Source: Candidatus Bipolaricaulia bacterium (lineage in GTDB: Bacteria > Bipolaricaulota > Bipolaricaulia > JBHIAT01). Taken from it: a DNA stretch of 16,248 nucleotides. Under the pieces are notes generated by a model. It ran no database searches. It saw nothing but the letters and a program-made list of their open reading frames with translations, and was not told the DNA's origin. A program made the position numbers and the translations under genes. Shown here piece by piece: positions 1 to 15,746 of this stretch (position 1 is the stretch's first letter; the number at the start of each line of letters is the position of its first letter). Location: NCBI GenBank assembly GCA_046758705.1, contig JBHIAT010000076.1, positions 1 to 16,248 on the forward strand. Reading direction: 5' to 3'.

Positions 1-303
1 CGCTGTCGAACCGGCGATTCTGATTTTTGCTATCTAGAATGAGCGAACGGTAAGAAGTGGATTGAAGCAGACCTAAAGCGTCTTAAGCTGTTAAAATAAA
101 TCACGTTGAGGGTACTCAGCTAGAAAGTGATTTCCTAACAGCTCTTGGATTTTTTAACACCCATATCATCCCCCTGCAACGGTGTGTTACTTAACCTCAA
201 ACCCAGCCCAAACCTGACGATTAGTTCCTGCAGAGTAAATTCGTGCCTCTAAGATTCCTGAGCCCATGTGCCCAAGAAGTGAATGATCGTTTCGATACCG
301 CTC
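1..303. mobile_element. Possible IS/MITE-like insertion (AT-richer, no long ORF of its own) truncating the M20 gene
   Basis: M20 homology stops at 301-306. The minus strand reads TTA|GAGCGGTATCGAAACGATCATT, a TTA target-like triplet followed by a GAG-starting end as in some IS5-family elements. Window start CGCTGTCGAACC matches the inverted end CGGTATCGAAAC at 9/12. No transposase is visible. Confidence 0.35.
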
Positions 304-1209
304 TAATGTAGGGCGAACACCGAGCCGCTCGACAACGGAATATCCTACCTCTCCCCACATCTGTGGAACCCCTATCTCCTGGCGGTATTGGGCCTCGTCG
401 AAGGGCAGGCGGGCAAGCTCGGTGCGCTCTTCTGCACTCAGGGGACGCACGTGGTCGTAGAAGCCAGGGATCGTCACACGGCCCTGCTCATCATGAAGTT
501 TAGCGATCATCTCACAGAGAGCTTGCAACGGATTATGCACCGCGCCTCCGTGCAGGCCGGAGTGAAGATCGTGCTTGGGGCCTCGAACCTCGACCTCCAT
601 ATAAACGAGACCGCGCAGGCCATAGATGATCGCCGGTTGATTTGGGCTGATCATTTGAGAATCGGAGATCAGGGCGACGTCTGCGTTAAGGAGGTCACGA
701 TGATCGGCTACGAACGCCTCTAAGTGGGCGCTGCCGATCTCCTCCTCCCCGTCAATGAGAAATTTCACATTGACGGGGAGTTCGCCGATGGTTTTTAGAT
801 AGGCCTCGGCCGCAGCCAAGTGGGCGAAGAATTGACCTTTGTCATCGGAGCTCCCGCGTGCGTAGATGTAGTCATCCTTGATCTCAGGCTCGAAGGGTTT
901 TGTCTGCCACTCCTCCAGCGGATCGACCGGCTGGACATCGTAATGGCCATAGACGAGCACGGTAGGTCGACCAGGTGCTGCTAACCACTCGCCGTAGATG
1001 ACCGGATGACCCTCGGTTTCTAAGACCTCTGCCCGCTGAAACCCAATTGTCCGCATGTAAGCCGCGATCCACTCGGCCGCCCGGCGGACCTCGTTTCGAT
1101 GCTCTGGAAGGGTGCTGATGCTCTCGATGCTCAGAAGCTCGATAAGCTTGTTTAGATACTGCTCCCGCTGTCCGTTCGCATAGTCTAAAGCCTGTTGGGT
1201 ATAAGCCAA
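187..1209 (-). pseudogene. C-terminally truncated M20 family dipeptidase/amidohydrolase
   Basis: Motifs YGHYDVQPV, RGSSDDKG, DGEEEIGS, DLHSG. Probable TTG start at 1209 with GAGGTG RBS 6 nt upstream. After RPTLE (codon 301-303) the frame runs into unrelated sequence and lacks the C-terminal third, including the last His ligand (HAPDE in the neighbouring paralog). Confidence 0.85.
282..307 (+). repeat. Imperfect direct repeat, copy A (AATGATCGTTTCGATACCGCTCTAAT); copy B at 15221-15247
   Basis: Direct comparison: AATGATCG(T/C)TTCGATAC(CG/TCT)CTCTAAT. Confidence 0.7.
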
Positions 1210-1225
1210 AACGATCACCTCACTG

Positions 1226-2587
1226 CTATAGGTCGGCAAAACCGTCAAGGATGCGGGCAATGTGTCGGGCGGCATTATGGAAATCTTTGATACGCATATG
1301 CTCGTCTGGCGCGTGGGTGCGATTGTCCCAGTAGCCCACCCCGGCGGTCACCACCGGGATGCCACCGAGTGGGTTGGCAAAAGCATAAGCTGGACTGCTG
1401 CCACCCGACAGCGGAGCGATGAGACTCGGATGGCCGTACACCTCCTCGCCGGTCCGAGCGGTCAGTTTGACCAGCGGGGCATCGCCGTCCGTCTTGGCTG
1501 GCCACATGGCGGCCAATCGCGTTACTTTTACGTCGGTGAAACCCTGGGCATCCAGGTGGGCGCGCAGTTTAGCGAGAATGTCATCCGGATCCTGGTTCGG
1601 CACCAGACGGAAATCCACCTTGGCCGTGGCCTTCGCCGGGATCACCGTCTTCATACCTTCGCCTTGGTAGCCAGCCATAAGCCCGGCAATGTTGCAGGTC
1701 GGTTCAAACACCGCTCGATTGAGGTCCTTATCGGTGAGACCACGCACAAACTCTTTCACTCCATAGGTTTCACGCAGCAACTTCTCATGCACAGGCAGCG
1801 CATCTAACAATTTCAGATCAACCTCTGATGGCGGTTTAGCGTGATCGTAAAAGCCGGAGATACGCACCCGTTCGTCAGGACCTTTCAAGCTATCCAGTGC
1901 CCAATGCAACCGCCAGGCCGCATTGGGCAACAAATGCGCGCCGCCAGAATGGGCATCCCTGCTCATCGCTTCGACGGAAAGTTCGATGTACAGGACGCCA
2001 CGGTAGCCCAGGTTTATATGGAGTTGACCATCGGGGTCGATGCCGCCCTCCTCCCAGATCGCCCCGTGGCAATTGAGGAGATCCTGATGCTCCTGGACGA
2101 ACTGGGCGATGTGAGGGCTGCCGATCTCTTCCTCGCCCTCGATCACGAAGGTCACCCCACAGGGCAGGGTTCCGCCGTGGGCGGCGTCTACGGCGTCTAC
2201 GACAGCCAGGCGAGCGATGATCTCACCCTTGTCATCCTTCGCCCCGCGGGCGTACAGGGCCCCATCCCGGATGGTCGGCTCAAACGGCGGGGAAGTCCAG
2301 AGTTCGAGCGGCTCCGGGGGTTGTACGTCGTAGTGGTTGTAGAAGAGCAGAGTACGTTCCGACTGCCCGTTGGCGTGTGCTACGATGATCGGGTTGCCGG
2401 ATGTCGCGAGCTTCTGGACGCGGAAGTCCCGCTGCTCCAGCAGTCCCATCACCAGGTCGGCGCATTCCTCCATGCCCTCTCCCTGCGTTGAGACGCTGGG
2501 TCGGGCGCAGAGCCGCTTCGTCTCTTCGATGTAGTCGTCGAGATTTTTCTCTAGAAACGTATCGATTCGCTGATCAATGTTTGTCAT
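1226..2587 (-). CDS. M20/M25/M40 family metallo-dipeptidase/amidohydrolase (453 aa)
   Basis: Complete motif set YNHYDVQPP, RGAKDDKG, EGEEEIGS, KTVIPAKA, HAPDEH. ATG overlaps the GH stop (ATGA at 2584-2587). Confidence 0.93.
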   Translation of the reverse strand: MTNIDQRIDTFLEKNLDDYIEETKRLCARPSVSTQGEGMEECADLVMGLLEQRDFRVQKLATSGNPIIVAHANGQSERTLLFYNHYDVQPPEPLELWTSPPFEPTIRDGALYARGAKDDKGEIIARLAVVDAVDAAHGGTLPCGVTFVIEGEEEIGSPHIAQFVQEHQDLLNCHGAIWEEGGIDPDGQLHINLGYRGVLYIELSVEAMSRDAHSGGAHLLPNAAWRLHWALDSLKGPDERVRISGFYDHAKPPSEVDLKLLDALPVHEKLLRETYGVKEFVRGLTDKDLNRAVFEPTCNIAGLMAGYQGEGMKTVIPAKATAKVDFRLVPNQDPDDILAKLRAHLDAQGFTDVKVTRLAAMWPAKTDGDAPLVKLTARTGEEVYGHPSLIAPLSGGSSPAYAFANPLGGIPVVTAGVGYWDNRTHAPDEHMRIKDFHNAARHIARILDGFADL

Positions 2588-3864
2588 CCTCCCCAGGGAA
2601 CATTGGACGGACGCACAGTGTTGCGACCCCAGTACTGCGTGATCACGTCCATCAGGTCGCTCGAAGCAACGTCAGCGCGGTTGTTGGGATCGGGACCGAG
2701 ACGAAAGTCGAAGTCATGGACTTCCTCGGCGAATGGCGGCCATGACGTTTGCCACTCCCACAGCGCATAATTTAGGCCCCGTTGTTCGAATAGGCCCATC
2801 AGATCGTTCATGTACTCAGCCCCGCCAGGCACCCAACGGATGACGCCAAACTCATTTACCGCGACCGGCACGCCATGCGTTACTGTAAAGGTATCGACCG
2901 TTGAGAGCAGGTTATTCAACCAGGTCCGGTTGAATCGATCGTTAACGCCGTCCCAGTCTGTATCGAACACGTCTGGGTAAGTAAATTCTATTTCCTCCCA
3001 CCATTGATGCGTGTATCGAAACGGCTCGTACTGATGTGCCATGTAGACAGTGTGGGGGTCCCCTGTCGGCTGCAGGTAGGGCAACCACGCGACGGCGCTG
3101 TAGGCCATCCCACCGATTAGAATCGGCGTGTCGAAATCCACCTCGCGGATAGCAGTGGTGATGCGTGGGTAAAGCTGGTTCCAATCGTACAAAGTACCCC
3201 CGTAGTTTGAGTAAAACTCTTCCGGTTCCCAGATGTCCAGCCGATCGTTGAGGACGTCGCTGCCTACGTCGTTGGAATTCGGCTCGACCATCAGGTCGTA
3301 GCCGACAACAATCGGGTTGTTACGGTAGCGTTCCGCTGTGTACCGCCACATTGCTACCCAGGCATCCTGCGCTACCTGATCTTGCCACACGGAATCATTG
3401 AAATAACCATCGAAATATGGATCGCCCTCACAGCACAGACCGAACTCACTGCGGCCTGGCCCGGTGCGGAACGAGATCACGGCGAACATGTCGGCCTTGG
3501 CAATCATACTAAGCAAGTTGTCCAGGTTGTCCTGGATGTCCTGATCCAAGGTGTAAGGCGGCGTTTCAGTGAACAGGCCGGGATGGGAGATATTGACGTA
3601 GTTGGTGCCCAGCACCGCCAGGCGGTTGAAGTCCTCCTGGGTGTAAGGTGGCCCGACGGGGCCGGGTCCCTTGAAGTCTGGCCCATCCAGCTCGGGAATG
3701 ACGACGGCCTGCCAGATGTTCGCGCCACGCAGGTAGGTGGTACCGCTTGCCCATAGGTCCCACTTGTCAGCCACGGTCTCCGCCTGTGCCCCAACCGTCA
3801 ACCATCCCACCAGGAATAGCACTCCTGCTAGGCTGAGGCTAAGCCATCTCATAGTCTTGCTCAT
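2584..3864 (-). CDS. Secreted glycoside hydrolase family 5 (cellulase-family) protein, 426 aa
   Basis: GH5-like motifs LRGANIW, VVGYDLMVEP (acid/base), HQYEPFRYTHQ, VNEFG (nucleophile), YALWEW. Start ATG 3864 with AAGGAGGG RBS. Sec signal peptide ends in AQA. Confidence 0.85.
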   Translation of the reverse strand: MSKTMRWLSLSLAGVLFLVGWLTVGAQAETVADKWDLWASGTTYLRGANIWQAVVIPELDGPDFKGPGPVGPPYTQEDFNRLAVLGTNYVNISHPGLFTETPPYTLDQDIQDNLDNLLSMIAKADMFAVISFRTGPGRSEFGLCCEGDPYFDGYFNDSVWQDQVAQDAWVAMWRYTAERYRNNPIVVGYDLMVEPNSNDVGSDVLNDRLDIWEPEEFYSNYGGTLYDWNQLYPRITTAIREVDFDTPILIGGMAYSAVAWLPYLQPTGDPHTVYMAHQYEPFRYTHQWWEEIEFTYPDVFDTDWDGVNDRFNRTWLNNLLSTVDTFTVTHGVPVAVNEFGVIRWVPGGAEYMNDLMGLFEQRGLNYALWEWQTSWPPFAEEVHDFDFRLGPDPNNRADVASSDLMDVITQYWGRNTVRPSNVPWGG

Positions 3865-4874
3865 TGAAGAACCCTCCTTTTTATAGTAGTTCTGTGGTAT
3901 CTTTACCCTGTCGTTCATCACCTCCCCAAGGTTTGTAATATGTTCATAGGACCGTACAAGTTGACGATCCGCTCAAACTCCTCCTCGTCGTAGAAGCGGC
4001 AGGAGCCTCGTCCAAACTCCTTGGCCACTTCCAGGCAAAACCGCGCAGTTGACTCCAATTCTAACGGGTAATTGGCTCCGGTCGCAACTCCCGGTATCAC
4101 CTGGCCGGAGGTGGGCGGCCACTCCGACGACAGGACTGTTCGTCACGGTAGCCGGCTGTAGGATGCTGTTGATATGATATAAACCGTTCCCATAGGGCGT
4201 GATATCCTGCATCGTGATCGGGAAGGTGACCGGTGGCCTGCCGAGCAGATCTTCATAATGCGCAACAGATCCCCGCTCACCCTCAAGATGTAGCCCTCCT
4301 TGACCGTAGGCGAGATGGCGAAGCCGTTGACATTAATAATCTCATTGCCTTTGGTGGCATCGACGCTTAGAACCGCATCCATTTGGGGATCGACCGCGAA
4401 AGGCAGCATTGCTGCTATGTCCACGGGGGATCCCATAAACGGCACGGGATCATGCGGAACGGTCGGTGCATCGGGGCATATATGAGTTGCGATGATCACA
4501 TCCCCGTTTAAGGCCTCTCCCTTCTTCATCATATCGACGAGCTTCAATCCACAAGCGATAGCGACGATCGCCCCATCGGCGTCGGAGACCGCTCCTATCT
4601 GATCCGGCCGGGCTCCGACCCCGCCCAGCCAGCCCATCAGGCCGAGCGTGGAGGCGTTCCCTCCGCTAAGCTTCCCTTCAGAACCTGCTATGACCAGTTT
4701 GATCAAATCGGTGGAGCCCCGATCCCCTTTGAGGGTCTCCAATTCGACCTGGATCCCTTTATTTTGTCCTTGGTTTTGATCGAACGCCGCTGTGACCTTC
4801 ACCCCCGACGCCTGGGGATTATCAATCAGCTCAAACGCTTGTATAATCTCCTTTAAGAGCATGTTACTAATTTT
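3772..4874 (-). repeat. ~1.1-kb imperfect direct repeat, copy 2 (DUF1177 + intergenic RBS + signal-peptide codons)
   Basis: Colinear with 14098-15189. Indels are a 12-nt in-frame insertion, a -1 and a +1 in the CDS, and a -1 in the intergenic T run. Confidence 0.95.
3918..4862 (-). pseudogene. DUF1177 family protein, second copy with two frameshifts
   Basis: ORF pieces 4143-4886, 3973-4212 and 3918-4100 together match the intact 14245-15177 protein. One C is missing between 4247 and 4248 and one extra G lies at 4117/4118. The shifted frame meets TGA at 4143-4145. Confidence 0.88.
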
Positions 4875-4894
4875 GGCTCTCTGCAAATGATTCT

Positions 4895-5212
4895 TTAGTC
4901 TGGCAGTATTTCAACAACATTTACAAGCCCAACAACGGACGGCGCTACAGCCGTCATTTTTTGCTTGTAGCTCCTAATCTTATCGTCGTTCTTGTAGCGG
5001 TTGCTATGGCTGTAGTCTCGCTGGGTCATGCACCAGTACATGCACCAGCACCCGCCATCTGCACCGGCTTTTCCGAACAATGTGGTGAGATCATCCCAAC
5101 GATCAGGAGTGAGTGGGTGGATCTCGACTGTGGTATCGAAGGCGTTGGAAAAGTCCTGGTTGCTTTGATTCGTACTCATACCTCTCTTATTTTTGCTCTT
5201 TTGGTTATCCAT
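4895..5212 (-). pseudogene. N-terminal fragment of a GNAT-family acetyltransferase
   Basis: EIHPLTPDRWDDLTTLFG...GGCWCMYW resembles the N-terminus of a common GNAT subfamily. Similarity is lost at about 4990 and no acetyl-CoA binding motif follows. Confidence 0.7.
4938..4962 (+). terminator. Intrinsic terminator-like hairpin oriented opposite to the operon
   Basis: GACGGC-gctaca-GCCGTC followed by ATTTTTT. An outer TACAAGC/GCTTGTA pairing (4922-4928/4963-4969) extends it. Confidence 0.5.
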
Positions 5213-5257
5213 TTGGGGGCTTGGGCTTCTTCTGTGTGTTAAAGACGTGAAATTCAG

Positions 5258-6208
5258 CTATAACAACAACCGGTCTCCGACGTCCTCCTGTAGAGCTCGC
5301 TCATATACTTTGGCAGCTACAGCGACATCCTCCAGAGCCACCCCCAGGGATTTGAACAGCGTGATCTCGTCCTGGCTCTTTCGTCCCAGCCCTCCGATGA
5401 CGACCTCCCCGAGCTCATGAATTTGATCCCAGCCCAGCGTTCCTTTCTGGATAGGAGCCAGAAAATCTCCGGCCTCGATCTTGGCTTGCTCCTTGGAATC
5501 CACGACGATCAGCCTGCTACGCTGGAGGGCCGTCTCGTCCAGCTCGCGGCGGATCAGGGCGTTCGAGCCAGCGGCATTGATATGTGCTCCTGCCTTCAAC
5601 CAGTTCCCCTTTAAGACCGGTGATGTAGCCGTTGTCATCGTGATGGCAATGTCTACACCCTGCACGGCGTCTTCTAGGGTATTTACCGGCGTGACCGGGG
5701 TTTCTAATGTGTCTGTCATCCACGTACAGAACGCTTCCCGGCGCTCCCGATTGCGACTGTAGGCATTAATCTGCTCGATGGAGCGTACTTTACAAACGGC
5801 CATGAGCTGAGCATCCGCCTGGAAGCCGGTGCCGATGATCCCGACGGTGCGCGCATCAGAGCGTGCCAGATACTTCGTGGCCACCCCGCTGGCAGCGCCG
5901 GTGCGTAGCCGGCCCAGATGATTCGCTTCTATAATTGCTAACAGCTCCCCCGCCTCAGCGCTATAGAGCAGAAAATGCCAGGCCACCCCGCCGCCGAAGA
6001 CCGAGTAAGCTTTGAATCCCAGAACACCCATCGAGGGGATCCCGGCCGCCATCACGTTCAACTGGCCCGTGGGCAGCAGCACGCGGATGCGGGGGTTATT
6101 GGCGGCCATCCCCAAGCCCTGCTGGCGGAACGCCTCTTCCACCGCCTCTAAAGCCAGCTCCATGCTGAGCAATCGCTGAACGTCCGCTTCCCGCAAGAAC
6201 AAGGCCAT
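5258..6208 (-). CDS. Ornithine cyclodeaminase / mu-crystallin family protein (316 aa)
   Basis: RLRTGAASG, Rossmann motif GIIGTGFQA, HINAAGS, C-terminal TLFKSLGVALEDVA. Confidence 0.92.
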   Translation of the reverse strand: MALFLREADVQRLLSMELALEAVEEAFRQQGLGMAANNPRIRVLLPTGQLNVMAAGIPSMGVLGFKAYSVFGGGVAWHFLLYSAEAGELLAIIEANHLGRLRTGAASGVATKYLARSDARTVGIIGTGFQADAQLMAVCKVRSIEQINAYSRNRERREAFCTWMTDTLETPVTPVNTLEDAVQGVDIAITMTTATSPVLKGNWLKAGAHINAAGSNALIRRELDETALQRSRLIVVDSKEQAKIEAGDFLAPIQKGTLGWDQIHELGEVVIGGLGRKSQDEITLFKSLGVALEDVAVAAKVYERALQEDVGDRLLL

Positions 6209-6225
6209 TTCACTATTTTTTTATG

Positions 6226-7908
6226 TCACTCTGCGCGAAAACCGTACTCCTTCTGGGCCTGCTCGGGTGTGATATAGCCGTTTCTTAAGTCTTCCAGGAT
6301 TTTTTCTTGCTCACGTTCATGAGGATCGCCGTGGCCTCCACCGGTGGCCGTCACCAACCGTGCGACATCCCCCCTTTCTAAACGGTAGCGTGCACACTTA
6401 CCGAAGACGACCTCACGTCCATCTTTGTGGAGAATTTTGACGTGGTTGTGTGAACCAGCTCGGCCCCCCGCCATGCCCCACGGGGGAAACTTATGTCGCC
6501 CAAACGTCGCTGTCAGAAAAGCTTCCTCACTAGTGATTCGATAGTCGCGAATCAGCCCTCGACCCCCCCGGTGTTTCCCAGCGCCGCCATCCTCTATAGC
6601 AAACGCATATTGATCGACGAGAACGCCATAGCGTGTCTCAGCGACTTCAGCAGGGGTCACGTAGGTCTCACCATCACCGACGCAAACAAGCCCATTCTCG
6701 CCATCCTTCGTGGCTCCACCCCCCCAACCCCCTGCCTGGGGTTCCACGAGTATGAACAGCTCGTCCGTATCCGGATGAATTCCAGACAGGATCGTCCCAC
6801 ATACCGACAGGAAATGTCCGGCAGTCAAGCGCTCCGGGATGTGTGGCGCTAAAGCTTTCCATATCAGATCCGTGGAGTAGAGGCGGGTTTCCCAGTTGGT
6901 CGAGACCGGAGCCGGACGCTGCGCGGAGAAGATCGCCCCCGGCGGACAGATGATCTTCAACGGCCGAAACGCACCTTGATTGGTTGGGATCGATGGATCC
7001 GTGATTGCCCGGAAGATTGCCCGTACGCCGGAGGTCAGGCCGGTGAAGGTACAGTTCACCGGGCCCGGCACTTGGGGGTGTGAGCCGGTAAAATCACAGA
7101 TGAATTCGTCATCGGTGATGGTTATCCTCACGCGCACGGGGAACGGGCCATGGCCGATCCCATCATCGTCAATGAAGTCTTCAGCTTCAAAAACGCCCTT
7201 AGGCAACTGCTTCAACTCCATGCGTACCAGCTGCTCTGTCTCATCTAAGCGCCTTTCGATGCTATGTAAGACGGCGTCTTTCCCGTACTTGGTAACCAGC
7301 TCCAGAAATCTTTTTTCCCCGACACGAACGGCAGCAATGCCAGCCCACATGTCTCCTAAGGTCATATCCGGGAGTCGCACGTTGACTGCGATCAAATCGA
7401 TGAGATCCTGAACAGGTTCTCCGCCCCTAAAGAGTCGAACACAGGGGAATTGGAGTCCTTCTTGATAGATCTCGGTGGAGTCGGTGGTCCAGCTGCCGGG
7501 GGCTTTGCCCCCGACCTCTGTCCAATGGGCTTTGTTGACCACATAGGCCACGAGTTTATTCTCGTGGAAGATGGGCATGGTCAGTGACACATCGGACAGA
7601 TGGGTCCCACCGCCGCCATAAGGGTCATTGGTGATGAAGATATCGCCGGGTCGAACCTGCCCGTGCTTCGCGAATTTCTCGATCACTTCGTGAACGGCGG
7701 CCGTGAGTGTGCCCAGGAAGCCGGTGACCCCGTTCCCTTGGGTGATCAACTGTCCGTTTGCATCGGTGAGCCCTACGGCGAAATCCAGCACCTCGTAAAT
7801 GATGGTGCTCTTGCTGGTCCGTTGCAGCGTGACGAACATCTCATCGCTGATCTCAACGAGCGAGCTCTTCACAATCTCGACTGTGAATGGATCGATAGCC
7901 ACTCTCAT
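6226..7908 (-). CDS. Hydantoinase B / oxoprolinase family protein (560 aa)
   Basis: DPFTVEIV, NDPYGGGGTHLSD, AHWTEVGGKAPGS, EIYQEGL, GGAGKHRGGRG, TGGGHGDP. Confidence 0.93.
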   Translation of the reverse strand: MRVAIDPFTVEIVKSSLVEISDEMFVTLQRTSKSTIIYEVLDFAVGLTDANGQLITQGNGVTGFLGTLTAAVHEVIEKFAKHGQVRPGDIFITNDPYGGGGTHLSDVSLTMPIFHENKLVAYVVNKAHWTEVGGKAPGSWTTDSTEIYQEGLQFPCVRLFRGGEPVQDLIDLIAVNVRLPDMTLGDMWAGIAAVRVGEKRFLELVTKYGKDAVLHSIERRLDETEQLVRMELKQLPKGVFEAEDFIDDDGIGHGPFPVRVRITITDDEFICDFTGSHPQVPGPVNCTFTGLTSGVRAIFRAITDPSIPTNQGAFRPLKIICPPGAIFSAQRPAPVSTNWETRLYSTDLIWKALAPHIPERLTAGHFLSVCGTILSGIHPDTDELFILVEPQAGGWGGGATKDGENGLVCVGDGETYVTPAEVAETRYGVLVDQYAFAIEDGGAGKHRGGRGLIRDYRITSEEAFLTATFGRHKFPPWGMAGGRAGSHNHVKILHKDGREVVFGKCARYRLERGDVARLVTATGGGHGDPHEREQEKILEDLRNGYITPEQAQKEYGFRAE

Positions 7909-7916
7909 GTGAAAAC

Positions 7917-8597
7917 TTAGTCAAGCAACTCGCTGATGCTTTTTGCTAAGATGGAGCGCACCAGCAGAACGGGTTTGTTTACAATCCCTTTGACCCTGTG
8001 TTTCATCGCCAGATCGTATCCAATGCAGTTCATGACGACGAGATCGACGCCTGCTTCCTTCAAGCTCTTGGCTGCCTGAGTGATAGCCGTCATCGTATCG
8101 TGTCCATAGGGTGAGGCTTCAACACCCGCGGCTTGGAATCCTCGTCTCTGGAAGTCCTGACCCAAACCCGCTATCTGTCTATGGGAAGGGACGATGAAGC
8201 CCAACTTACCCTCAAAAACGATCGAAGCCAAGAAACCGTAAACCAGGTTATCCAACATGATTAGCGGCCTCTTCGAGCGCAACCTCGGAAACGCACCGCT
8301 GCAGAGCATCGCAATGCCGTCCACACCTTCAGCGTTCAGCGCGTTGATCTGCTTCTGCAATTCCTCTAGAATGGCGCGCTTCCCGATCGTGACCTCCGTA
8401 CCATCGCGCATACGTGTGACCAAGACTTCGTCATCTTTTCTGGGCGCCAACCTTTTGACTGCTTCAAGCGAAAAACGATCGAGCGCTCCTTTTTCAACGA
8501 CTTCTATATCCTTTGATGTAATCAGGCCTTTCAGCTCACTCACGACATCGTCTCTAGGAGACTGTCCGATGGTGATTGCTCCTATCCTGCTAGTCAT
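7917..8597 (-). CDS. AroM family protein (226 aa)
   Basis: IGAITIGQSPRDDV, LVTRMRDG, MLCSG, ASPY and MNCIGY are typical AroM-family segments. GAGG RBS upstream. Confidence 0.88.
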   Translation of the reverse strand: MTSRIGAITIGQSPRDDVVSELKGLITSKDIEVVEKGALDRFSLEAVKRLAPRKDDEVLVTRMRDGTEVTIGKRAILEELQKQINALNAEGVDGIAMLCSGAFPRLRSKRPLIMLDNLVYGFLASIVFEGKLGFIVPSHRQIAGLGQDFQRRGFQAAGVEASPYGHDTMTAITQAAKSLKEAGVDLVVMNCIGYDLAMKHRVKGIVNKPVLLVRSILAKSISELLD

Positions 8598-8612: not shown

Positions 8613-9596
8613 TCAATATAAGTGGCAACGGACATAATGTCCCTCTTCGACCTGGATCATCGGCGTTACTTCCCTATCACAGACGGGCAGTTTTTTGGGG
8701 CAGCGTGACAGGAAAACGCAAACCGGTGGCACATCGACAGGGCTTGGAATTTCGCCTTCCAGCGTGATTTCCTCGGGGATAAGCTCCTGTTCGTCCTTTG
8801 ACACGACAGGAATGGCGGAGAGCAGCGCCCGGGTATAAGGATGCAACGGATTTTGGAACAGCTTGTCTGTAGGGGCGATTTCGACGATTCTGCCCAGATA
8901 CATCACCGCGGTTCTGTCAGCAATGTTTCGCACAACACTCAAATCATGACTGATGTAGATATAGGTGAGCTGGAACCGTTTCTGAAGTTCCATGAGCAGT
9001 TCCAGAATCTTCGCTTGCACGGACACATCGAGCGCCGAGGAGGGTTCGTCCAGGATGATAAGCTTGGGGTTCGTCGCCAGAGCTCGTGCAATGCCGACTC
9101 TCTGCTTTTGTCCGCCGCTTAAGGTGTGCGGGTATCGGTACATGAACTCCTGCGGGAGATCAACGGCCTCCAGGAGCTCCTCGACCCTGTGGCGGATCTG
9201 GGCACGCGTCAGGCGCTCATGGATCTTCAGCGGGAGTGAAATGGCATCAAAGATCGTTCGGCGGGGATTCAACGAGGAGGCCGTATCTTGAAATACCATC
9301 TGCATGTGCTTGCGCAAGTTCCTCAACTCGTTGCCATCGACCGAAGAGATCTCTTGGCCCTCAAACCAGATTTTTCCTTTAGTCGGCTTGTAAATTCTGA
9401 TCAGCGTCTTGCCCAGGGTCGTCTTGCCCGAACCCGATTCCCCCACGAGCGCCAGCGTTTCACCCCGGTTCACTTTCAAATCGTTATGATCGACGGCTTG
9501 AATGATTTTCGTATGATTACGGCGCCCCCACCAGCCATCGCCGCGATAGAAGTATTTGCACAACGCCTCAGCCTTCAACAGCACATCGGCCATCAT
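8613..9596 (-). CDS. dppF: Dipeptide/oligopeptide ABC transporter ATP-binding subunit (DppF/OppF-like)
   Basis: Walker A GESGSGKT, LSGGQKQR, ILDEP, HPYT and a Cys-rich C-terminal domain. ATGA overlap with the upstream ATPase. Confidence 0.92.
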   Translation of the reverse strand: MMADVLLKAEALCKYFYRGDGWWGRRNHTKIIQAVDHNDLKVNRGETLALVGESGSGKTTLGKTLIRIYKPTKGKIWFEGQEISSVDGNELRNLRKHMQMVFQDTASSLNPRRTIFDAISLPLKIHERLTRAQIRHRVEELLEAVDLPQEFMYRYPHTLSGGQKQRVGIARALATNPKLIILDEPSSALDVSVQAKILELLMELQKRFQLTYIYISHDLSVVRNIADRTAVMYLGRIVEIAPTDKLFQNPLHPYTRALLSAIPVVSKDEQELIPEEITLEGEIPSPVDVPPVCVFLSRCPKKLPVCDREVTPMIQVEEGHYVRCHLY

Positions 9597-10612
9597 GATC
9601 TACTCAGCCCCTTGCCTGGATACAGGTGACAGGCGGCCCAGTGAGAATCTCCCACTTGGACCAATTCGGGCTTGACTTGCGTGCAGACATCCATTGCGTG
9701 AGGGCAGCGGGGATGAAACCGGCAGCCAGATGGAGGATAGATATAATCGGGGATCCGGCCGCCTATCCCCATGAACTCCTCTTCGGTGAGCCTGGGGATG
9801 GCCTGGAGCAGGCCCGCAGTGTACGGATGTTTGGGGTTATCTAAAAGATCCTTCGCGTTCGCGGTCTCTGCGATCGTGCCTGCGTACATCACATAAATTC
9901 TCTCGCAAAGCTTCCTGGCAACCCCCAAGTTATGGGTGATATAGAGGACCGCCGCGTGCTCCTCTCGCACCTTCTCCATGATGAGCTCGAGGATCCCTTT
10001 TTGAATGGTCACATCCAACGCGGTCGTCGGTTCATCGGCAATGAGCAGTTTCGGGTGGCCGATCAGGGAGAGCGCAATCAGGACCCGCTGTCGCATGCCC
10101 CCACTGAGTTCCACCGGATACCTGTGGAGGATCTCTTCAGGAGACGGAATCTTCACTCGCTCTAACAGCTCGATCGCTTCGGCTTTCGAGCCGTTGGCGT
10201 TTCTGCCTGTCCCCAGGAACGCGAGCAGACCGGCTCGCTTCTTTCCTTTCCATCGGATGAGATCCACCATCTGCTGCCCGATGGTGAACGTGGGATTGAG
10301 CGAGGTCATGGGATCTTGGGGGATATAGGAGATCTGCTGGGTGGTGATCGGCCTGCGTTGATCCTCATCGAGCGTGAGCAAATCTTGCTGGCTAAACAGG
10401 ATCTGACCCTCGAGGATGCGTGCCGGAGGTATGGGCAAAGCACCTAACACCGTTTTGGCGGTGATGCTCTTGCCACAACCGGTCTCGCCCACGAGCCCGA
10501 CGGTCTCCCCCTCGTGGATGAACAGGTTGACCCCGTCTAACACGCGAGAGATGCCGTCGATCGTATGAAAGTGAATACTCAGATCCTTGGTCTCTAACAG
10601 CCTAGCGCTCAT
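9593..10612 (-). CDS. dppD: Dipeptide/oligopeptide ABC transporter ATP-binding subunit (DppD/OppD-like)
   Basis: GETGCGKS, QDPMTSLNP, LSGGMRQR, ADEPTTALD, GCRFHPRC. Start trimmed to ATG 10612 (ATGA overlap with the permease stop). Confidence 0.92.
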   Translation of the reverse strand: MSARLLETKDLSIHFHTIDGISRVLDGVNLFIHEGETVGLVGETGCGKSITAKTVLGALPIPPARILEGQILFSQQDLLTLDEDQRRPITTQQISYIPQDPMTSLNPTFTIGQQMVDLIRWKGKKRAGLLAFLGTGRNANGSKAEAIELLERVKIPSPEEILHRYPVELSGGMRQRVLIALSLIGHPKLLIADEPTTALDVTIQKGILELIMEKVREEHAAVLYITHNLGVARKLCERIYVMYAGTIAETANAKDLLDNPKHPYTAGLLQAIPRLTEEEFMGIGGRIPDYIYPPSGCRFHPRCPHAMDVCTQVKPELVQVGDSHWAACHLYPGKGLSRS

Positions 10613-11508
10613 CTTCCTTCGCTCTCCACGTCGAAGAAATCCCGCAAACCATCTCCGAGCAGATTGAATCCGAGCACGGTGATGAAGATCGCCAATCCAG
10701 AGAACGTCGAGATCCACCACATGTTCGGCAGATACTGCCGTCCGGAGCTCACGATCGTGCCCCATTCTGGGGTCGGAGACTGCGCTCCCAAGCCGAGAAA
10801 GCCCAAGATCGCACCCGTTAAAATGGCATACCCCATGTCCAGGCTGATCTTGACGAGCAATGGGGAGGTCATATTTGGAAGGATCTCTCGCAACATAATA
10901 TAAAAGCGTGAAGCGCCCTGTGACTCAGCTGCTTGTACGAAATCTTCCTGCTTGATCGACGACGCTTCTCCATAAGCCAGTCGAGCGTACCAAGGCCACC
11001 AGGCGATGGAGATCGCGATCATGCTGTTGATCAGCGAGCGTTCAAATGCGGCCGTGACGACCAAAGCCAGCACCACAGGGGGAAGGGCCAGGAAGACATC
11101 GGTCACCCTCATAATGACGGTTTCGGCAACGCCGCCGAAGTAACCAGCGATGAGCCCCAGCGGGACACCAACCACCACCGCCAGTGACAGGACCACGACG
11201 CCCAGCATGAGCGAGAGACGGGCGCCGAACAGAATTCGGCTCAGCAGATCCCGGCCGACTTCGTCGGTGCCTAGCAGGTGCTTTGAACTTGGAGCGCGAA
11301 ATGTCTGTCCGAAATGCACGGCGTCTCCCCGACCATCCTCGGGGGACGGGGCAATGAACGGCGCAAAGATGGCGGCCAACACGACCAAAAGGATGATGGA
11401 CAAACCTAACACCGAAAGTGGATTGCTTCCGAATCGAACCAGGGCACGCCACAGGTTCCCTTTTGGTTTTCGCTGAACGAGTTCTTGTTCTTGGGCTTGG
11501 GTCGTCAT
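10609..11508 (-). CDS. dppC: Dipeptide/oligopeptide ABC transporter permease (DppC/OppC-like)
   Basis: HLLGTDEVGRDLLSR, FVQAAESQGA, FLGLGAQSPTPEWG, FNLLGDGLRD. ATG 11508 with GAGGA RBS. Confidence 0.92.
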   Translation of the reverse strand: MTTQAQEQELVQRKPKGNLWRALVRFGSNPLSVLGLSIILLVVLAAIFAPFIAPSPEDGRGDAVHFGQTFRAPSSKHLLGTDEVGRDLLSRILFGARLSLMLGVVVLSLAVVVGVPLGLIAGYFGGVAETVIMRVTDVFLALPPVVLALVVTAAFERSLINSMIAISIAWWPWYARLAYGEASSIKQEDFVQAAESQGASRFYIMLREILPNMTSPLLVKISLDMGYAILTGAILGFLGLGAQSPTPEWGTIVSSGRQYLPNMWWISTFSGLAIFITVLGFNLLGDGLRDFFDVESEGR

Positions 11509-11515
11509 CGTATCC

Positions 11516-12523
11516 TCATCCCCTCCGCAGCCGGATTCTCGGGTCCAAATATCCATATAAAACGTCGACAATGGCGTTGACCAAGACATAAGTCAATCCA
11601 ATGATCAGCGTCACGGCAACCACCGCGTTGAAATCTTTAAAGAGCACCGCCTGCACCCCATAGCGAGCCATCCCCGGCCAGGCAAACACCGTCTCCACGA
11701 CGAACGCCCCGGCCAAAAAGAAACCGAACAGCAGGCCGATGACCGTCAATGTCGAGGTGAACGCGTTCTTCAACATGTATTTGTAGACGAGCAAGCCCCT
11801 TGGCATTCCCAGCACCCGACTGACCGTGGTGTAATCCTTCCACTGTTCGTCGATCATACTGGCCCGCGTGATGCGCATGATCTGGGCCATTGGAGAAAGG
11901 GCGAGTGCGATGGCCGGCAGCACGATATGTCGAAAGCTATCCCAAAAAGCGGACCCATTTCCGGTGATCAAACTGTCAAGCAGATAAAAGCCGGTGATGT
12001 GGGTTGGGGACTCTCCGCCGATCCGGCCGAGGAGCGGGAACCAGCCGAGCGAATAGGCGAAGGCGAGTTGAAACATGATACCAACCCAGAAGCGTGGCAA
12101 AGAGACACCCGCGAACGCGAACAGCCTGCTCGCATGATCGGGCCAGCGATCTTTGCGCAGTGCTGAAATGACCCCCAGGGGTACCCCTAATATCACCGCG
12201 AAGAACATCCCGACCAACACCAGCTCAAAGGTGGCCGGGATCCTGTCAGCCAGGTCCTCCGCGACATCACGTCGGGTGAAAAACGACAGGCCGAGCTTTC
12301 CCTGAAATAGTCCCTTTATATACAGCAGATATTGGATGTGTAACGGTCGGTCGAGACCGAGCTCATGGCGGACCCGTTGGATCTCGGAAGCGGGGGCCTC
12401 CACGGGAAGGAGGAGCCGAACCGGATCTCCAGGTGAGAACCGGGAAAGGAAGAAAATCAGAATGGAGAGACCAATCAAGACCAGAATACTCTGAACGAAC
12501 CGGTATACTAGATAACCAACCAT
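11516..12523 (-). CDS. dppB: Dipeptide/oligopeptide ABC transporter permease (DppB/OppB-like)
   Basis: PGDPV, LGLDRPLHIQY, PATFEL, VVETVFAWPG, YGYLDPRIR. Start trimmed to ATG 12523. Confidence 0.92.
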   Translation of the reverse strand: MVGYLVYRFVQSILVLIGLSILIFFLSRFSPGDPVRLLLPVEAPASEIQRVRHELGLDRPLHIQYLLYIKGLFQGKLGLSFFTRRDVAEDLADRIPATFELVLVGMFFAVILGVPLGVISALRKDRWPDHASRLFAFAGVSLPRFWVGIMFQLAFAYSLGWFPLLGRIGGESPTHITGFYLLDSLITGNGSAFWDSFRHIVLPAIALALSPMAQIMRITRASMIDEQWKDYTTVSRVLGMPRGLLVYKYMLKNAFTSTLTVIGLLFGFFLAGAFVVETVFAWPGMARYGVQAVLFKDFNAVVAVTLIIGLTYVLVNAIVDVLYGYLDPRIRLRRG

Positions 12524-12556
12524 AGATCTACGAATCCATGAAGAAGAGGAGGCCCC

Positions 12557-12587
12557 AGGTCCCACACGGACGCGGAACCCGGGACCT
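12557..12587 (-). other. Intercistronic stem-loop after the SBP gene (possible mRNA stabiliser or partial terminator)
   Basis: AGGTCCC (12557-12563) and GGGACCT (12581-12587) form an inverted repeat; pyrimidine-rich CCTCCTCTTCTT follows on the minus strand. Confidence 0.5.
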
Positions 12588-12600
12588 CATCCATACGACA

Positions 12601-14190
12601 CTACCTGTCAATTCTGATCTTCCAGAAGAACAAGTCGTAACCGAGGATCCCGTTGAAGGTGTACCCTTTCACGTAATCGCGAAACGCGATCCGATGCTCA
12701 GGATTGGCGATAAACAGCGAAGCGGCATCCTCGTTGACGATCTCCTGTGCCTGTGCATAGAGCTGGAGCTGTTCCGTCGAATCGACGGTGACCCTCGCCC
12801 GATCTAACAAGTCACTGGCTGTGGGTTTCTCGAAGTAGTTCACGTTGATGTAATTGCCTCCTGCGGCCCGCGTCCCAGGGTGAAACATCAGATAGGTGTG
12901 GCTGTCGGGGTGCGGGATCTTCAACGTATGGAAGATCGCCGTGAAGTGTCGAGCCGTCTCCGGGGACTCGGTTGTCTCCAGGACTTGAGCCCACAACATG
13001 GACTCCAGTTTGATGTTCAAGCCGATATCCTTCAGGTTATCCCGCATCAGGAGGCCCAACCGCTCCTCTATAGGGGCAGTAGATACCCAGAGGTAGGTCA
13101 GCTCCATATTTCGCAACTCCTGAGCCGAGTACTTGCACTGGGCCAGTTCTCTTCTGGCAGCTTCGAGGTCGCGCGTGTAAGGCTGAAGCGCAGCGTTCCA
13201 TCCCGGCGCCAACACCGGGACGGGTCCGACGGCCTGCGCCCCTCCCCTGAAGATGTCGTTGATGGCCGTCTCGTAGTCGAAGGCGTACAGGACGGCCCGG
13301 CGACAATGGACATCATCGAACGGGGGCTTTTTGTTGTTCATCTGGTGGAGATACAGCTGTAGCTGAGAATCTCGCTGCACCACGATCCCCGAGGTCCTCT
13401 CCAGGTCTTCGTAAACCTCGGGAGTCAGCCATTGATCGACCATGTCTATCGCGCCTGCCTTCAGAGCCGCGACCTGCGTAGCCGGCTCGGGGATGACCTG
13501 CCAGACGACCTTGTCAACCAGGGCTGGCCCCATGAAGTAATCGTCAAACTTCCGGAAGGTGATCTCACGACCGATCTCCACGCTCTCCACCTCGAACGGG
13601 CCGGAACCGACGTCATGGTTCACAAGGTAATTTTGACACAGGTCCCCTGCCTGCTCGTTGGCCAGACACAGATCCTTGTTGACGATGAAGAACTGGACCA
13701 GTGTCGGGACGAAGATCGCAAACGGCTGCCTCAGGTTAAAGACCACCGTGTAGCGGTCGGCCGCTACGGTGTCTCCTGGTCCGAGCAGCCCCCGCCACAG
13801 GCTCGCGTACCCTAAGCCGATTCGGGTCATCCGATCCATGGAGAAGGCAACGTCCTCGGCGGTCAGCTCCGTGCCGTCATGGAATTTGACTCCCTTGCGG
13901 AGGTTGAAGGTCCAAGTCTGCGCGTTGGGAGAAGCACTCCAGGACTCGGCTAACCAAGGCCTTATGACCAGCTGTCCTCCGATCCGAATCGGACGCACCA
14001 GGGGGTCGTACGTGTTGAAGACGTTGATCGACTGGGTCTCATCGACGTGCCTCCCAGGGTCGAACAGCATCGTCGCCTGCGTGGTGCCATAGGTGAACAC
14101 GGTCTCCGCCTGTACCCCGACCGTCACCCATCCCACCAGAAGCAGCACCCCTGCCAGACTGAAACTGAACCACTTGATCCTCTTACTCAT
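12601..14190 (-). CDS. ABC transporter substrate-binding protein, family 5 (DppA/OppA-like), 529 aa
   Basis: LAESWS...WTFNLRKGVKFHDGTELTAEDVAFS signature, GSGPF, PFDDVHCRRAV. Sec signal peptide ending VQA with no lipobox. AAGGAGGG RBS. Confidence 0.95.
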   Translation of the reverse strand: MSKRIKWFSFSLAGVLLLVGWVTVGVQAETVFTYGTTQATMLFDPGRHVDETQSINVFNTYDPLVRPIRIGGQLVIRPWLAESWSASPNAQTWTFNLRKGVKFHDGTELTAEDVAFSMDRMTRIGLGYASLWRGLLGPGDTVAADRYTVVFNLRQPFAIFVPTLVQFFIVNKDLCLANEQAGDLCQNYLVNHDVGSGPFEVESVEIGREITFRKFDDYFMGPALVDKVVWQVIPEPATQVAALKAGAIDMVDQWLTPEVYEDLERTSGIVVQRDSQLQLYLHQMNNKKPPFDDVHCRRAVLYAFDYETAINDIFRGGAQAVGPVPVLAPGWNAALQPYTRDLEAARRELAQCKYSAQELRNMELTYLWVSTAPIEERLGLLMRDNLKDIGLNIKLESMLWAQVLETTESPETARHFTAIFHTLKIPHPDSHTYLMFHPGTRAAGGNYINVNYFEKPTASDLLDRARVTVDSTEQLQLYAQAQEIVNEDAASLFIANPEHRIAFRDYVKGYTFNGILGYDLFFWKIRIDR

Positions 14191-15189
14191 TGAAGAACCC
14201 TCCTTTTTTGTAGTAGTTCTGTGGTATCTTTACCCTGCAGTTCATCACCTCCCCAAGGTTTGTAATATGTTCATAGGACCGTACAAGTCGACGATCCGCT
14301 CGAACTCCTCCTCGTCGTAGAAGCGGCAAGAGCCTCGTCCAAACTCCTTGGCCACTTCCAGGCAAAACCGCGCAGTTGACTCCAATTCTAACGGGTAATT
14401 GGCTCCGGTCGCAACTCCCGGTATCACCTGGCCGGAGGTAGGCGCCACCCCGACGACAGGACTGTTCGTCACGGTAGCCGGCTGTAGGATGCTGTTGATG
14501 TGATATAAACCGTTCCCATAGGGCGTGATATCCTGCATGCTGATAGGGAAGGTGACCGGTGGCCTGCTGAGCACGATCTTCATCATGCGCAACAGATCCC
14601 CACTCACCCTCAAGATGTAGCCCTCCTTGACCGTAGACGAGATGGCGAAGCCATTGAGGTTAATAATCTCGTTGCCTTTGGTGGCATCGACGCTGAGAAT
14701 TGCATCCATCTCTGGATCGACCGATGAATCCATCAAGGGTTTCAACTCCACAGGAGAGCCCATAAACGGCACGGGATCATGCGGGATGGTAGGCGAATTG
14801 GGACAGATATGGGTGGTGATGATTACATCCCCAGTTAGTAACTCTCCCTTATTCACCATGCTGGCAAGTTTCAAGGCACAAGCGATGGCGACGATCGCCC
14901 CGTCAGCGTCGGAGACGGCCCCGATCTGATCTGGTCGGGCACCGACCCCGCCCAGTTGACCTATCAGACCAAGTGTGGGCGCTTTGCCTCCATTGAGCTT
15001 TCCATCCAATCCGGCAACCGACAGTTTGATCAAATCGGTGGAGCCCCGATCGCCTTCGAGGGTTTCCAATTCGACCTTGACTCCTCTGTTTTGATCGAAC
15101 GCCGCTGTGACCTTCGCCCCCGACGCCTGGGGATTATCAATCAGCTCAAACGCTTGTATAATCTCCTTTAAGAGCATGTTACTAATTTT
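14098..15189 (-). repeat. ~1.1-kb imperfect direct repeat, copy 1
   Basis: Colinear with 3772-4874. Confidence 0.95.
14245..15177 (-). CDS. DUF1177 family protein (310 aa, intact)
   Basis: LGGVGARP, VSDADGA, THICP, PHDPVPFMGSP, SVDATKGN, VKEGYIL, QDITPYGNGLYHINSILQP are recognisable DUF1177 segments. The family commonly neighbours AroM and Dpp genes. Confidence 0.85.
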   Translation of the reverse strand: MLLKEIIQAFELIDNPQASGAKVTAAFDQNRGVKVELETLEGDRGSTDLIKLSVAGLDGKLNGGKAPTLGLIGQLGGVGARPDQIGAVSDADGAIVAIACALKLASMVNKGELLTGDVIITTHICPNSPTIPHDPVPFMGSPVELKPLMDSSVDPEMDAILSVDATKGNEIINLNGFAISSTVKEGYILRVSGDLLRMMKIVLSRPPVTFPISMQDITPYGNGLYHINSILQPATVTNSPVVGVAPTSGQVIPGVATGANYPLELESTARFCLEVAKEFGRGSCRFYDEEEFERIVDLYGPMNILQTLGR

Positions 15190-15220: not shown

Positions 15221-15247
15221 AATGATCGCTTCGATACTCTCTCTAAT
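15221..15247 (+). repeat. Imperfect direct repeat, copy B of 282-307
   Basis: AATGATCGCTTCGATACTCTCTCTAAT vs AATGATCGTTTCGATACCGCTCTAAT. Confidence 0.7.
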
Positions 15248-15266
15248 AGGAAAAATTCTCGCAAAC

Positions 15267-15295
15267 AGCATAACACAAAAGACATCCTTTGTCAC
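15267..15295 (-). promoter_or_regulatory. Putative sigma70-type promoter of the DUF1177-Dpp operon
   Basis: Minus strand GTGACA (-35, 15295-15290), 17-nt spacer ending TGT (extended -10), TATGCT (-10, 15272-15267). Confidence 0.65.
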
Positions 15296-15308
15296 TTACT
15301 GACCTTTT

Positions 15309-15324
15309 TGTAAGAAACCTTACA
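15309..15324. promoter_or_regulatory. Palindrome TGTAAG-AAAC-CTTACA, candidate transcription-factor site
   Basis: Perfect 6-4-6 inverted repeat (TGTAA-N6-TTACA, CRP/FNR-like spacing) just upstream of the -35, between divergent genes. Confidence 0.5.
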
Positions 15325-15398
15325 GTCATCCACCGCTCGATCTCCTAATATAAGCATGGGTGGATTTGAATCAAACGACATAAGGAGGTTTTTTTCAA

Positions 15399-15746
15399 AT
15401 GAAACCCGTAGCTGTCAACGATAGTAACTTTGAGTCCGAGGTGTTACAAACCCAGGTTCCCGTGCTGGTTGATTTCTGGGCCGAATGGTGCGGTCCGTGC
15501 CATGCACTCGCCCCGATCGTCGAGGAGATCGCCTCCGACTATGGTGACCAGCTCAAGGTGGTCAAGCTCAACGTCGATGAGAATCAACAGACGGCGATCC
15601 AGTATGGGATTATGAGCATACCCACTCTGCTGCTGTTCAAGGACGGGGAGATCATCGAGAAGCTCATCGGCTACATGCCGAAGGGAAATTTGATCAGGCG
15701 GCTGGCCCCGCACGTAAGCTTGGCTGGCACGGCTACAGAAGTGTAA
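15399..15746 (+). CDS. trxA: Thioredoxin
   Basis: VLVDFWAEWCGPC active site, IMSIPTLLLFKDG, TAAGGAGG RBS. Confidence 0.96.
   Translation: MKPVAVNDSNFESEVLQTQVPVLVDFWAEWCGPCHALAPIVEEIASDYGDQLKVVKLNVDENQQTAIQYGIMSIPTLLLFKDGEIIEKLIGYMPKGNLIRRLAPHVSLAGTATEV

Follow-up and report, generated by a model that had tools for sequence, protein, structure and literature searches.

Introduction

Chimeric genes are reportedly formed by partial gene duplication, in which a duplicated 5′ part recruits new 3′ sequence, a route said to be set out in a 2012 review by Katju. The literature on such partial-duplication chimeras is mostly eukaryotic. Here we describe a candidate bacterial case in a stretch of 16,248 nucleotides (contig JBHIAT010000076.1 of assembly GCA_046758705.1, Candidatus Bipolaricaulia bacterium), the whole of which is called the window below: a glycoside hydrolase family 5 (GH5) gene whose 5′ end, including its signal-peptide codons, is paralogous to the front of a peptide-transport operon in the same window. 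The GH5 gene is likely to be a natural chimera, in which a leader of the type of an ATP-binding cassette (ABC) transporter substrate-binding protein (SBP) was joined in frame to a GH5 domain by an old copying event, with later gene conversion.

Exchanges of this kind have described relatives. An Enterobacterales survey by Honigschmid et al. 2018 (PMC5952966) deals with orthologues that gain or lose a signal peptide because their N-terminal region is acquired or lost. Paralogues of the N-terminal part of the Ureaplasma MBA protein and in-frame chimeras were reported by Zimmerman et al. 2011 (PMC3047005), and members of the spma family of M. agalactiae have a common signal peptide (PMC2824730). 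Among eukaryotes, Mbanefo et al. 2012 (PMC3434034) described a Schistosoma japonicum gene family with a common core promoter and signal sequence.

Results

A repeat ends in frame within the GH5 gene

The GH5 gene starts with an ATG at 3864-3862, eight bases after a GGAGG (3877-3873), and 23 of its first 31 residues are identical to those of the resident SBP (19 of 93 nucleotides differ). The spacers ahead of the two genes, 3865-3917 and 14191-14244, agree in 50 of 54 aligned columns (three mismatches and one indel). The similarity ends after ...GAGACCGTG (E-T-V) at 3772/14098, three codons past the A-Q-A of GH5 and the V-Q-A of the SBP, and the reading frame runs on into GH5. The N-terminal identity, the near-identical intergenic DNA and the sharp in-frame end had all been described in a first-pass annotation of the window, and all three were reproduced. 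The interval to which it had confined the match, 3772-3917, is real, but its extent was understated: the repeat continues for about 1.1 kb through the whole DUF1177 gene that lies upstream. It runs from 3772 to ~4874 (copy B) and from 14098 to ~15189 (copy A), comprises 1105 aligned columns at 86.6% identity, includes the entire DUF1177 gene and reaches 12 nucleotides before its ATG. Genes across the window were assigned with Pfam and NCBIfam; the features that concern the repeat are given below in 5′ to 3′ order on the minus strand.

14245-15177, minus strand: DUF1177A, the intact copy (310 amino acids), first gene of the peptide-transport operon (Pfam PF06675, E 4e-122)
14191-14244, minus strand: spacer with a Shine-Dalgarno sequence before the SBP gene, aligned to 3865-3917
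14098-14190, minus strand: codons 1-31 of the resident SBP gene, which encode its signal peptide and are paralogous to the captured signal (sequence comparison)
12601-14190, minus strand: SBP gene, family 5 (peptide/nickel type); mature part 12601-14097 (Pfam PF00496, E 6.6e-77)
4773-4874, minus strand: second near-identical tract, the DUF1177 5′ end and 12 nucleotides upstream (101/102 columns identical)
3918-4862, minus strand: DUF1177B, the second, broken copy of DUF1177 (Pfam PF06675, E 1.9e-72 on the 5′ open reading frame)
4003-4112, minus strand: longest identical run between the copies, 110 nucleotides, inside a 95-97% tract at 3865-4377
3865-3917, minus strand: spacer from the DUF1177B stop to the GH5 start, with the Shine-Dalgarno sequence GGAGG at 3873-3877; duplicates the spacer of the SBP
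3772-3864, minus strand: captured signal-peptide codons 1-31 of GH5, matching SBP residues 1-31
2584-3864, minus strand: GH5 glycoside hydrolase gene, a single open reading frame of 426 amino acids; mature part 2584-3771

A 25-mer of the spacer occurs twice in the window, against an expectation of 0 in 200 shuffles, and a tblastn search of the window with the SBP recovered residues 1-31 at 3864-3772 with E = 7e-10; a chance match is thus excluded. Apart from this match the same search returned nothing below E = 0.6, and there is no SBP remnant at copy B.

The SBP resembles solved structures from residue 32 onwards (6ofq_A), its fold starting with F32, and the conserved GH5 domain begins at D33, one residue after the junction (A32-D33-K-W-D-L-W). 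Judged by these boundaries, the junction sits where, in both parents, a few predicted unstructured residues separate the signal from the fold. At the GH5 junction the copies have just 15 identical bases in common (codons 27-31), after which the similarity ends abruptly. E-T-V stands shortly before DKW, at matching positions, in 3 of 97 GH5 homologues that have a DKWxLW pattern (P0008, P0019 and P0075). P0008 and P0019, which read A-E-T-V, fall outside the clade of the window's GH5. The sister protein of the window's GH5, P0011, has T-V there, and a short stretch in common (microhomology) may therefore place the true breakpoint one to three codons upstream of 3772.

The signal is found among SBP orthologues

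The GH5 protein search scored 4428 candidates, of which 1599 were relatives at E <= 0.001; the best 120 of these were listed and 119 homologues compared. Among the best 120 of the 1599, the best non-self match is 79% identical over 91% of the query, the uncovered part being the N-terminus. When the 31-residue GH5 signal was aligned locally with the first 120 residues of each of the 119 homologues, the best score was 41 compared with a shuffled-signal maximum of 42; that is, 0/119 GH5 homologues resemble the signal above the level of the shuffled control. The same signal scores 121 against the resident SBP, and 123, 62 and 49 against the SBP orthologues P0122, P0123 and P0125, respectively. P0122, which at 87% identity over its full length marks the upper end of the identities among the SBP orthologues, has 26 of 31 signal residues in common with GH5 (counted by eye), and the GH5 signal is closer to it than to the SBP of its own window (23/31).

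The DKWxLW pattern was found in 97 of the 119 GH5 homologues, in one of them (P0109) at an internal site; the remaining 22 are mostly truncated at the start or have a variant of the motif. The stretch ahead of DKWxLW ranges from 1 to 319 residues (median 64) and is unrelated in sequence among the homologues. Since SBP orthologues carry the signal and 0/119 GH5 homologues do, these alignments place the signal in the SBP lineage, from which it was transferred to GH5. The first-pass annotation had derived the GH5 N-terminus from the SBP and had pointed to the N-termini of the nearest GH5 homologues as the place to look; on both points the comparison bears it out.

The surroundings of DUF1177 elsewhere are those of peptide metabolism. 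In all three annotated plasmid loci (L078, L079 and L080) AroM directly follows DUF1177 and an IclR regulator and a peptide transporter (OPT or ABC) are present, together with a peptidase or deacylase in 3/3 and a racemase in 2/3. These DUF1177-AroM loci look like a recurrent peptide-utilisation cassette, of which DUF1177 and AroM are the parts without known function. No solved structure is related to DUF1177 (best E 0.23). In the literature searched, DUF1177 is named only in work on another subject. The lists of SBP and DUF1177 homologues contain four pairs on equal-sized contigs (10466, 7231, 28287 and 10027), which hints at linkage, though not at adjacency, of SBP and DUF1177.

The two copies form a mosaic

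Identity between the copies is uneven along the repeat:

4773-4874 of copy B, DUF1177 5′ end: 99.0% identity to copy A
4378-4772 of copy B, DUF1177 middle: 74.2% identity to copy A
3918-4377 of copy B, DUF1177 3′ half: 95.2% identity to copy A
3865-3917 of copy B, spacer: 92.6% identity to copy A
3772-3864 of copy B, signal: 79.6% identity to copy A

The 110-nucleotide identical run at 4003-4112 was equalled in 0 of 10000 shuffles of the difference positions, and the copies also have an exact run of 73 nucleotides in common. By the Nei-Gojobori method, the synonymous divergence (dS) of DUF1177 is 0.80 at codons 31-165, with a ratio of non-synonymous to synonymous divergence (dN/dS) of 0.20, and dS amounts to 0.07 at codons 246-310 and 0 at codons 1-30. 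The signal has a dS of 0.73 and a dN/dS of 0.18 over 31 codons, and the excess of synonymous over non-synonymous change in it is significant (Fisher p = 0.002 on rounded counts). Both signals stayed under purifying selection, as the first-pass annotation had supposed. The signal and the DUF1177 middle agree in synonymous depth, at about 0.75. Because both diverged segments agree in this way, we infer one old duplication followed by two recent gene-conversion tracts, a history that would fit the mosaic; a recent copy plus two later imports of foreign sequence would be an equally economical alternative.

A maximum-likelihood tree of the diverged DUF1177 middle (A, B and 48 homologues, P0242-P0289, that is, 50 sequences; 135 columns) unites A, B and P0242 with a support of 99 and places A with P0242, apart from B, with a support of 95. 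Identities over this segment are 100/135 between A and B, and 108/135 between P0242, the closest DUF1177 homologue, and either of them. As A groups with P0242 to the exclusion of B, copy B is not a fresh copy of A. The branch of B is about as long as that of A, which suggests that copy B was a working gene for most of its history.

In its present state DUF1177B lacks one base relative to copy A at ~4248 and has one extra at 4118, compensating indels 130 nucleotides apart, between which the shifted frame meets a stop at 4143-4145. Past the second indel the frame is restored, and the C-terminal 64 codons are an almost perfect match to copy A. Both indels lie inside the recently homogenised tract, so they would be either recent or errors. 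The DUF1177B protein is not needed for GH5 to be made.

We propose that a paralogous front of the peptide-transport operon (DUF1177, the spacer with its ribosome-binding site, and SBP codons 1-31) was placed ahead of a GH5 domain, which would since have been translated from an SBP-type start, with an SBP-type Sec signal in place of the leader of its own family. Gene conversion between the copies would then have re-homogenised the DUF1177 5′ end, as well as the 3′ half and the spacer up to the start codon, and DUF1177B would afterwards have been broken by the two 1-nucleotide indels. Transcription of GH5 would be with, or like, that of the operon. The origin itself could have been a single step, a partial duplicate landing before the GH5 domain in one event, or could have taken two, an old second DUF1177-SBP pair having later had its SBP body lost or replaced. 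No remnant of a native GH5 leader was recognised in the window, and the left end of the similarity (4874), being the end of a conversion tract, is uninformative on the original breakpoint.

A predicted Sec-type signal, and GH5 relatives that already have export leaders

The GH5 signal has a charged start (K3, R6), a hydrophobic core of 19 residues from W7 to G25 and A-Q-A at 26-28, followed by E-T-V. The net charge of residues 1-7 is +2 in the GH5 chimera and +3 in the SBP, and the maximum 12-residue Kyte-Doolittle mean is 2.50 in both. Within residues 1-31, positions -3 to -1 read A-Q-A in GH5 and V-Q-A in the SBP, and neither a lipobox Cys nor a twin arginine is present. Signal peptidase I sites as a rule have small residues at -3 and -1. 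GH5 is predicted from these features to be exported through Sec and to be cleaved by signal peptidase I after A-Q-A (A28/E29), with E-T-V-A-D-K-W as the mature start.

The hydrophobic core is long, at 19 residues, which would suit a different fate of the same captured segment, namely that it stays uncleaved and, as a membrane anchor at the N-terminus, holds GH5 at the cell surface. In monoderm bacteria free SBPs have to remain associated with the cell. A tether would be required there by an SBP that has no lipid anchor, and the SBP and its close orthologues lack a lipobox Cys; distant homologues labelled Caldilineae or Anaerolineae have lipoprotein-type leaders with ...Q-C-A-P.... On the other hand, A-Q-A or V-Q-A at -3 to -1, which is kept in orthologues (AQAE, AQQE, LAQAE), fits a signal peptidase I site, and the closest orthologue of the SBP is labelled Methylomirabilales and another one Deltaproteobacteria, which are double-membrane groups. 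In these a cleaved periplasmic SBP is normal. A membrane anchor appears unlikely on balance, and a cleaved Sec signal is the fate that we prefer. The source labels differ between neighbouring genes: the closest SBP (87%) is labelled Methylomirabilales, and the closest labelled GH5 homologues Anaerolineae or Chloroflexota.

The reading frame of the catalytic domain is intact. The enzyme matches Pfam PF00150 at residues 77-373 with 81.6 bits (cut-off 23.5), and its relatives in the Protein Data Bank are endoglucanases (best E 6.5e-17). Across an alignment of 40 sequences, E194 (in V-E-P-N, where GH5 enzymes usually have N-E-P) and E338 (in N-E-F-G) do not vary; going by GH5 motifs, they would be the acid/base and the nucleophile. 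GH5 is the odd gene in this peptide-utilisation locus. A recent foreign origin of the gene was considered and rejected, its GC content and its GC content at third codon positions (GC3) being within the range of the neighbouring genes (GC3 of the mature part 0.70, other genes 0.60-0.76).

Leaders of 15 or more residues are present in 92 GH5 homologues; the N-terminus includes a hydrophobic stretch in 84 of the 92, and 45 of these 84 also have a lipobox-like motif, as defined by a crude pattern. In a FastTree phylogeny of 97 mature GH5 domains, P0011 is the sister of the window's GH5 (support 0.94), which groups with P0004, P0006, P0014 and P0116 (support 0.76); the leaders of these proteins are all short and plain, at 26-36 residues. 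Since GH5 relatives already have export leaders, the signal was probably replaced and export not newly gained, one ordinary short Sec-type leader giving way to another. Any gain would probably lie in regulation or translation start instead of in export as such, and the functional consequence is probably small, no more than another type of leader or an altered regulation.

As to regulation, promoter-like hexamers lie just left of the repeat at 4914-4887, and a promoter-like pair, TTGCGA-18 nt-TAGAAT, is present in the 3′ part of both DUF1177 copies (4087-4058 and 14414-14385); both are consensus matches only. The shared pair lies about 195 nucleotides ahead of the SBP and GH5 starts. It could be an internal promoter that was carried along with the duplicate. 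A structured RNA in the conserved spacer was considered and rejected, as a search of the window against Rfam returned nothing.

Other genes of the window

All long open reading frames lie on the minus strand except a thioredoxin gene (15399-15746, plus strand). The genes other than those listed above are, again in 5′ to 3′ order on the minus strand:

11516-12565 and 10609-11511, minus strand: two permeases (Pfam/NCBIfam)
9593-10615 and 8613-9596, minus strand: two ATPases (Pfam/NCBIfam)
7917-8597, minus strand: AroM (Pfam/NCBIfam)
6226-7908, minus strand: hydantoinase-B-like protein (HydB; Pfam/NCBIfam)
5258-6208, minus strand: ornithine-cyclodeaminase-family protein (Pfam/NCBIfam)
4895-5212, minus strand: orf105, an open reading frame of 105 codons at the left edge of copy B, without a Pfam or NCBIfam match
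1226-2587 and 187-1275, minus strand: M20 peptidases M20a and M20b (Pfam/NCBIfam)

The hydantoinase-B/oxoprolinase-type gene (6226-7908), which stands between AroM and the ornithine-cyclodeaminase-family gene, has no hydantoinase-A partner in the window. In an Atlas structure search with a low-confidence model of orf105 (predicted local distance difference test, pLDDT, 0.43), GNAT acetyltransferase families and clusters called 'fragment' were found at template-modelling (TM) scores of 0.51-0.57. As a lead only, orf105 is possibly the N-terminal fragment of a GNAT acetyltransferase gene, a stump cut at the left edge of copy B. There is also a weak tblastn match of orf105 (E 0.04) to 15225-15371, upstream of copy A.

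Downstream of the chimera, the GH5 stop overlaps the M20a start as ATGA (2584-2587), and the codons for the final W-G-G of GH5 provide the purine-rich GGGGAGGA before the M20a start; at its 3′ end, too, GH5 is thus tightly joined to the next gene. M20b matches residues 17-280 of M20a, and a dipeptidase model up to position 301 of 458, and then ends. There is no continuation in any frame of 1-350, and the GC content falls to 0.48; M20b is a truncated gene beside the contig end.

How firm is the chimera?

Several points weigh against a natural chimera. The whole case is built on a single assembled contig of 16 kb, and the 90% cluster of the chimeric protein contains nothing else (one member, one contig). 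The dN/dS of 0.18 over the 31 codons of the signal is based on about 19 substitutions. The neighbourhood is untidy, with DUF1177B frameshifted, M20b truncated and orf105 a possible fragment, a state that could fit a decaying or rearranged region or could come from assembly or sequencing errors. No syntenic locus was found in related genomes among 77 HydB loci (53-71% identity), and DUF1177, AroM and GH5 are present in none of these 77 loci, which had been found with the HydB protein (tblastn E <= 1e-10).

The exact shared runs of 110 and 73 nucleotides would be enough to confuse a short-k assembler, and with other broken genes on the contig and the chimera on one contig only, it may be asked whether a DUF1177-SBP paralogue was wrongly joined to GH5 or the assembly path swapped between the repeat copies. 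The 15 shared bases at the GH5 junction are, however, too short for a k-mer path error, and a swap at the 110-nucleotide run would exchange the upstream DUF1177 halves and leave signal B on GH5. Signal B is, moreover, a separate and selected sequence (19/93 nucleotides differ, dN/dS 0.18), and the join keeps the frame and falls precisely where, in both parents, the signal gives way to the first conserved residues of the fold. An assembly artefact is accordingly held to be quite improbable, and a natural chimera remains the preferred reading.

A more ambitious view, close to that of the first-pass annotation, would have the DUF1177 3′ half, the spacer and the signal form a portable expression-and-export leader in this lineage, with conversion or selection keeping the copies alike so that various secreted cargoes share the control of the peptide transporter. 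If so, further cargoes would be expected behind the same leader elsewhere in the genome. The window holds two carriers, one donor-type copy and one recipient. The spacer 25-mer occurs in 0 of the 77 fetched loci, and a profile of the two signals, run against 1.84 billion cluster representatives, gave no credible further carrier, a result that covers representatives only and is weak evidence. The sole profile match, P0361, was discarded as a 190-amino-acid repeat protein whose unit resembles the hydrophobic core only. Neither a recombinase nor a transposase domain was found in the Pfam scan of 16 open reading frames, and the region lacks flanking inverted repeats, having a single 14-nucleotide palindrome within 2400-5400. 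A mobile-element origin was likewise set aside: six plasmid records match the DUF1177 coding part only (65-69% identity), and the window has no transposase.

These results give no support to the reusable unit of 'DUF1177 + RBS + signal' that had been envisaged, no other protein starting with this signal having been found beyond the two in the window, in the 77 loci or among the 1.84 billion representatives. DUF1177 is hardly a working part of such a unit when the GH5-side copy is broken, a leader that confers export does not agree with relatives that already have export leaders (84/92 with a hydrophobic stretch), and a 'swapped' cargo presumes that an SBP body once stood in copy B, of which tblastn found no remnant in the window. 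A portable leader seems very doubtful to us.

That the transfer ran in reverse, the SBP having taken the signal of GH5, or that both inherited it independently, has nothing in its favour beyond the symmetry of the pairwise match and is scarcely credible given the graded versions of the signal in SBP orthologues (123, 62, 49) with 0/119 GH5 homologues above control, the inclusion of DUF1177, the upstream gene of the SBP, in the shared DNA, and the position of the DUF1177 family beside peptide transporters, AroM and peptidases in 3/3 annotated plasmid loci.

Comparison with known systems

The GH5 chimera offers a clean natural experiment in signal-peptide exchange, in which the donor-type gene, the recipient, the junction and the later history are all contained in 16 kb. 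The predicted Sec signal of a periplasmic binding protein has been retained under purifying selection on an unrelated enzyme, and the workable junction, within a few unstructured residues between signal and fold, follows the rule of engineered signal swaps. For annotation, the locus teaches that matching N-termini in unrelated neighbours can reflect real paralogy. It reveals no new mechanism. The literature searched contained no prokaryotic case of a replaced Sec signal whose donor is named.

Similarly to the Enterobacterales orthologues (PMC5952966), the export signal was changed here by exchange of a whole N-terminal stretch and not by point mutations. In that survey the cases are classed by alignment and the donors appear to be unnamed, whereas here the donor-type gene, its upstream gene and its spacer lie 10 kb away; moreover, an existing leader was replaced here and export was not created.

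As in the Ureaplasma MBA and M. agalactiae spma families (PMC3047005, PMC2824730), a signal-coding 5′ region is common to genes with differing downstream parts, and in those families in-frame chimeras form via recombination at short homologies. They are, however, multigene surface antigens switched by DNA inversion, whereas the window has two carriers and an enzyme cargo of an unrelated family, with no recombinase gene and no flanking inverted repeats in the window. A cassette-switching family comprises at least three genes with a common leader, compared with the two found in the window and 0 in the 77 loci, and the present case does not belong to this type. The Schistosoma family (PMC3434034) resembles the present case in that a duplicated promoter-plus-signal segment now stands before different coding sequences; it is eukaryotic, dispersed, repeat-mediated and of many copies, in contrast to the single local event in a prokaryotic operon seen here, where no repeat elements were detected.

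Unlike in the partial-duplication chimeras reportedly reviewed by Katju in 2012, probable later gene conversion between the duplicate and its source is added here. The GH5 gene is best classed as a chimera produced by partial duplication, the duplicate and its source having since evolved in concert.

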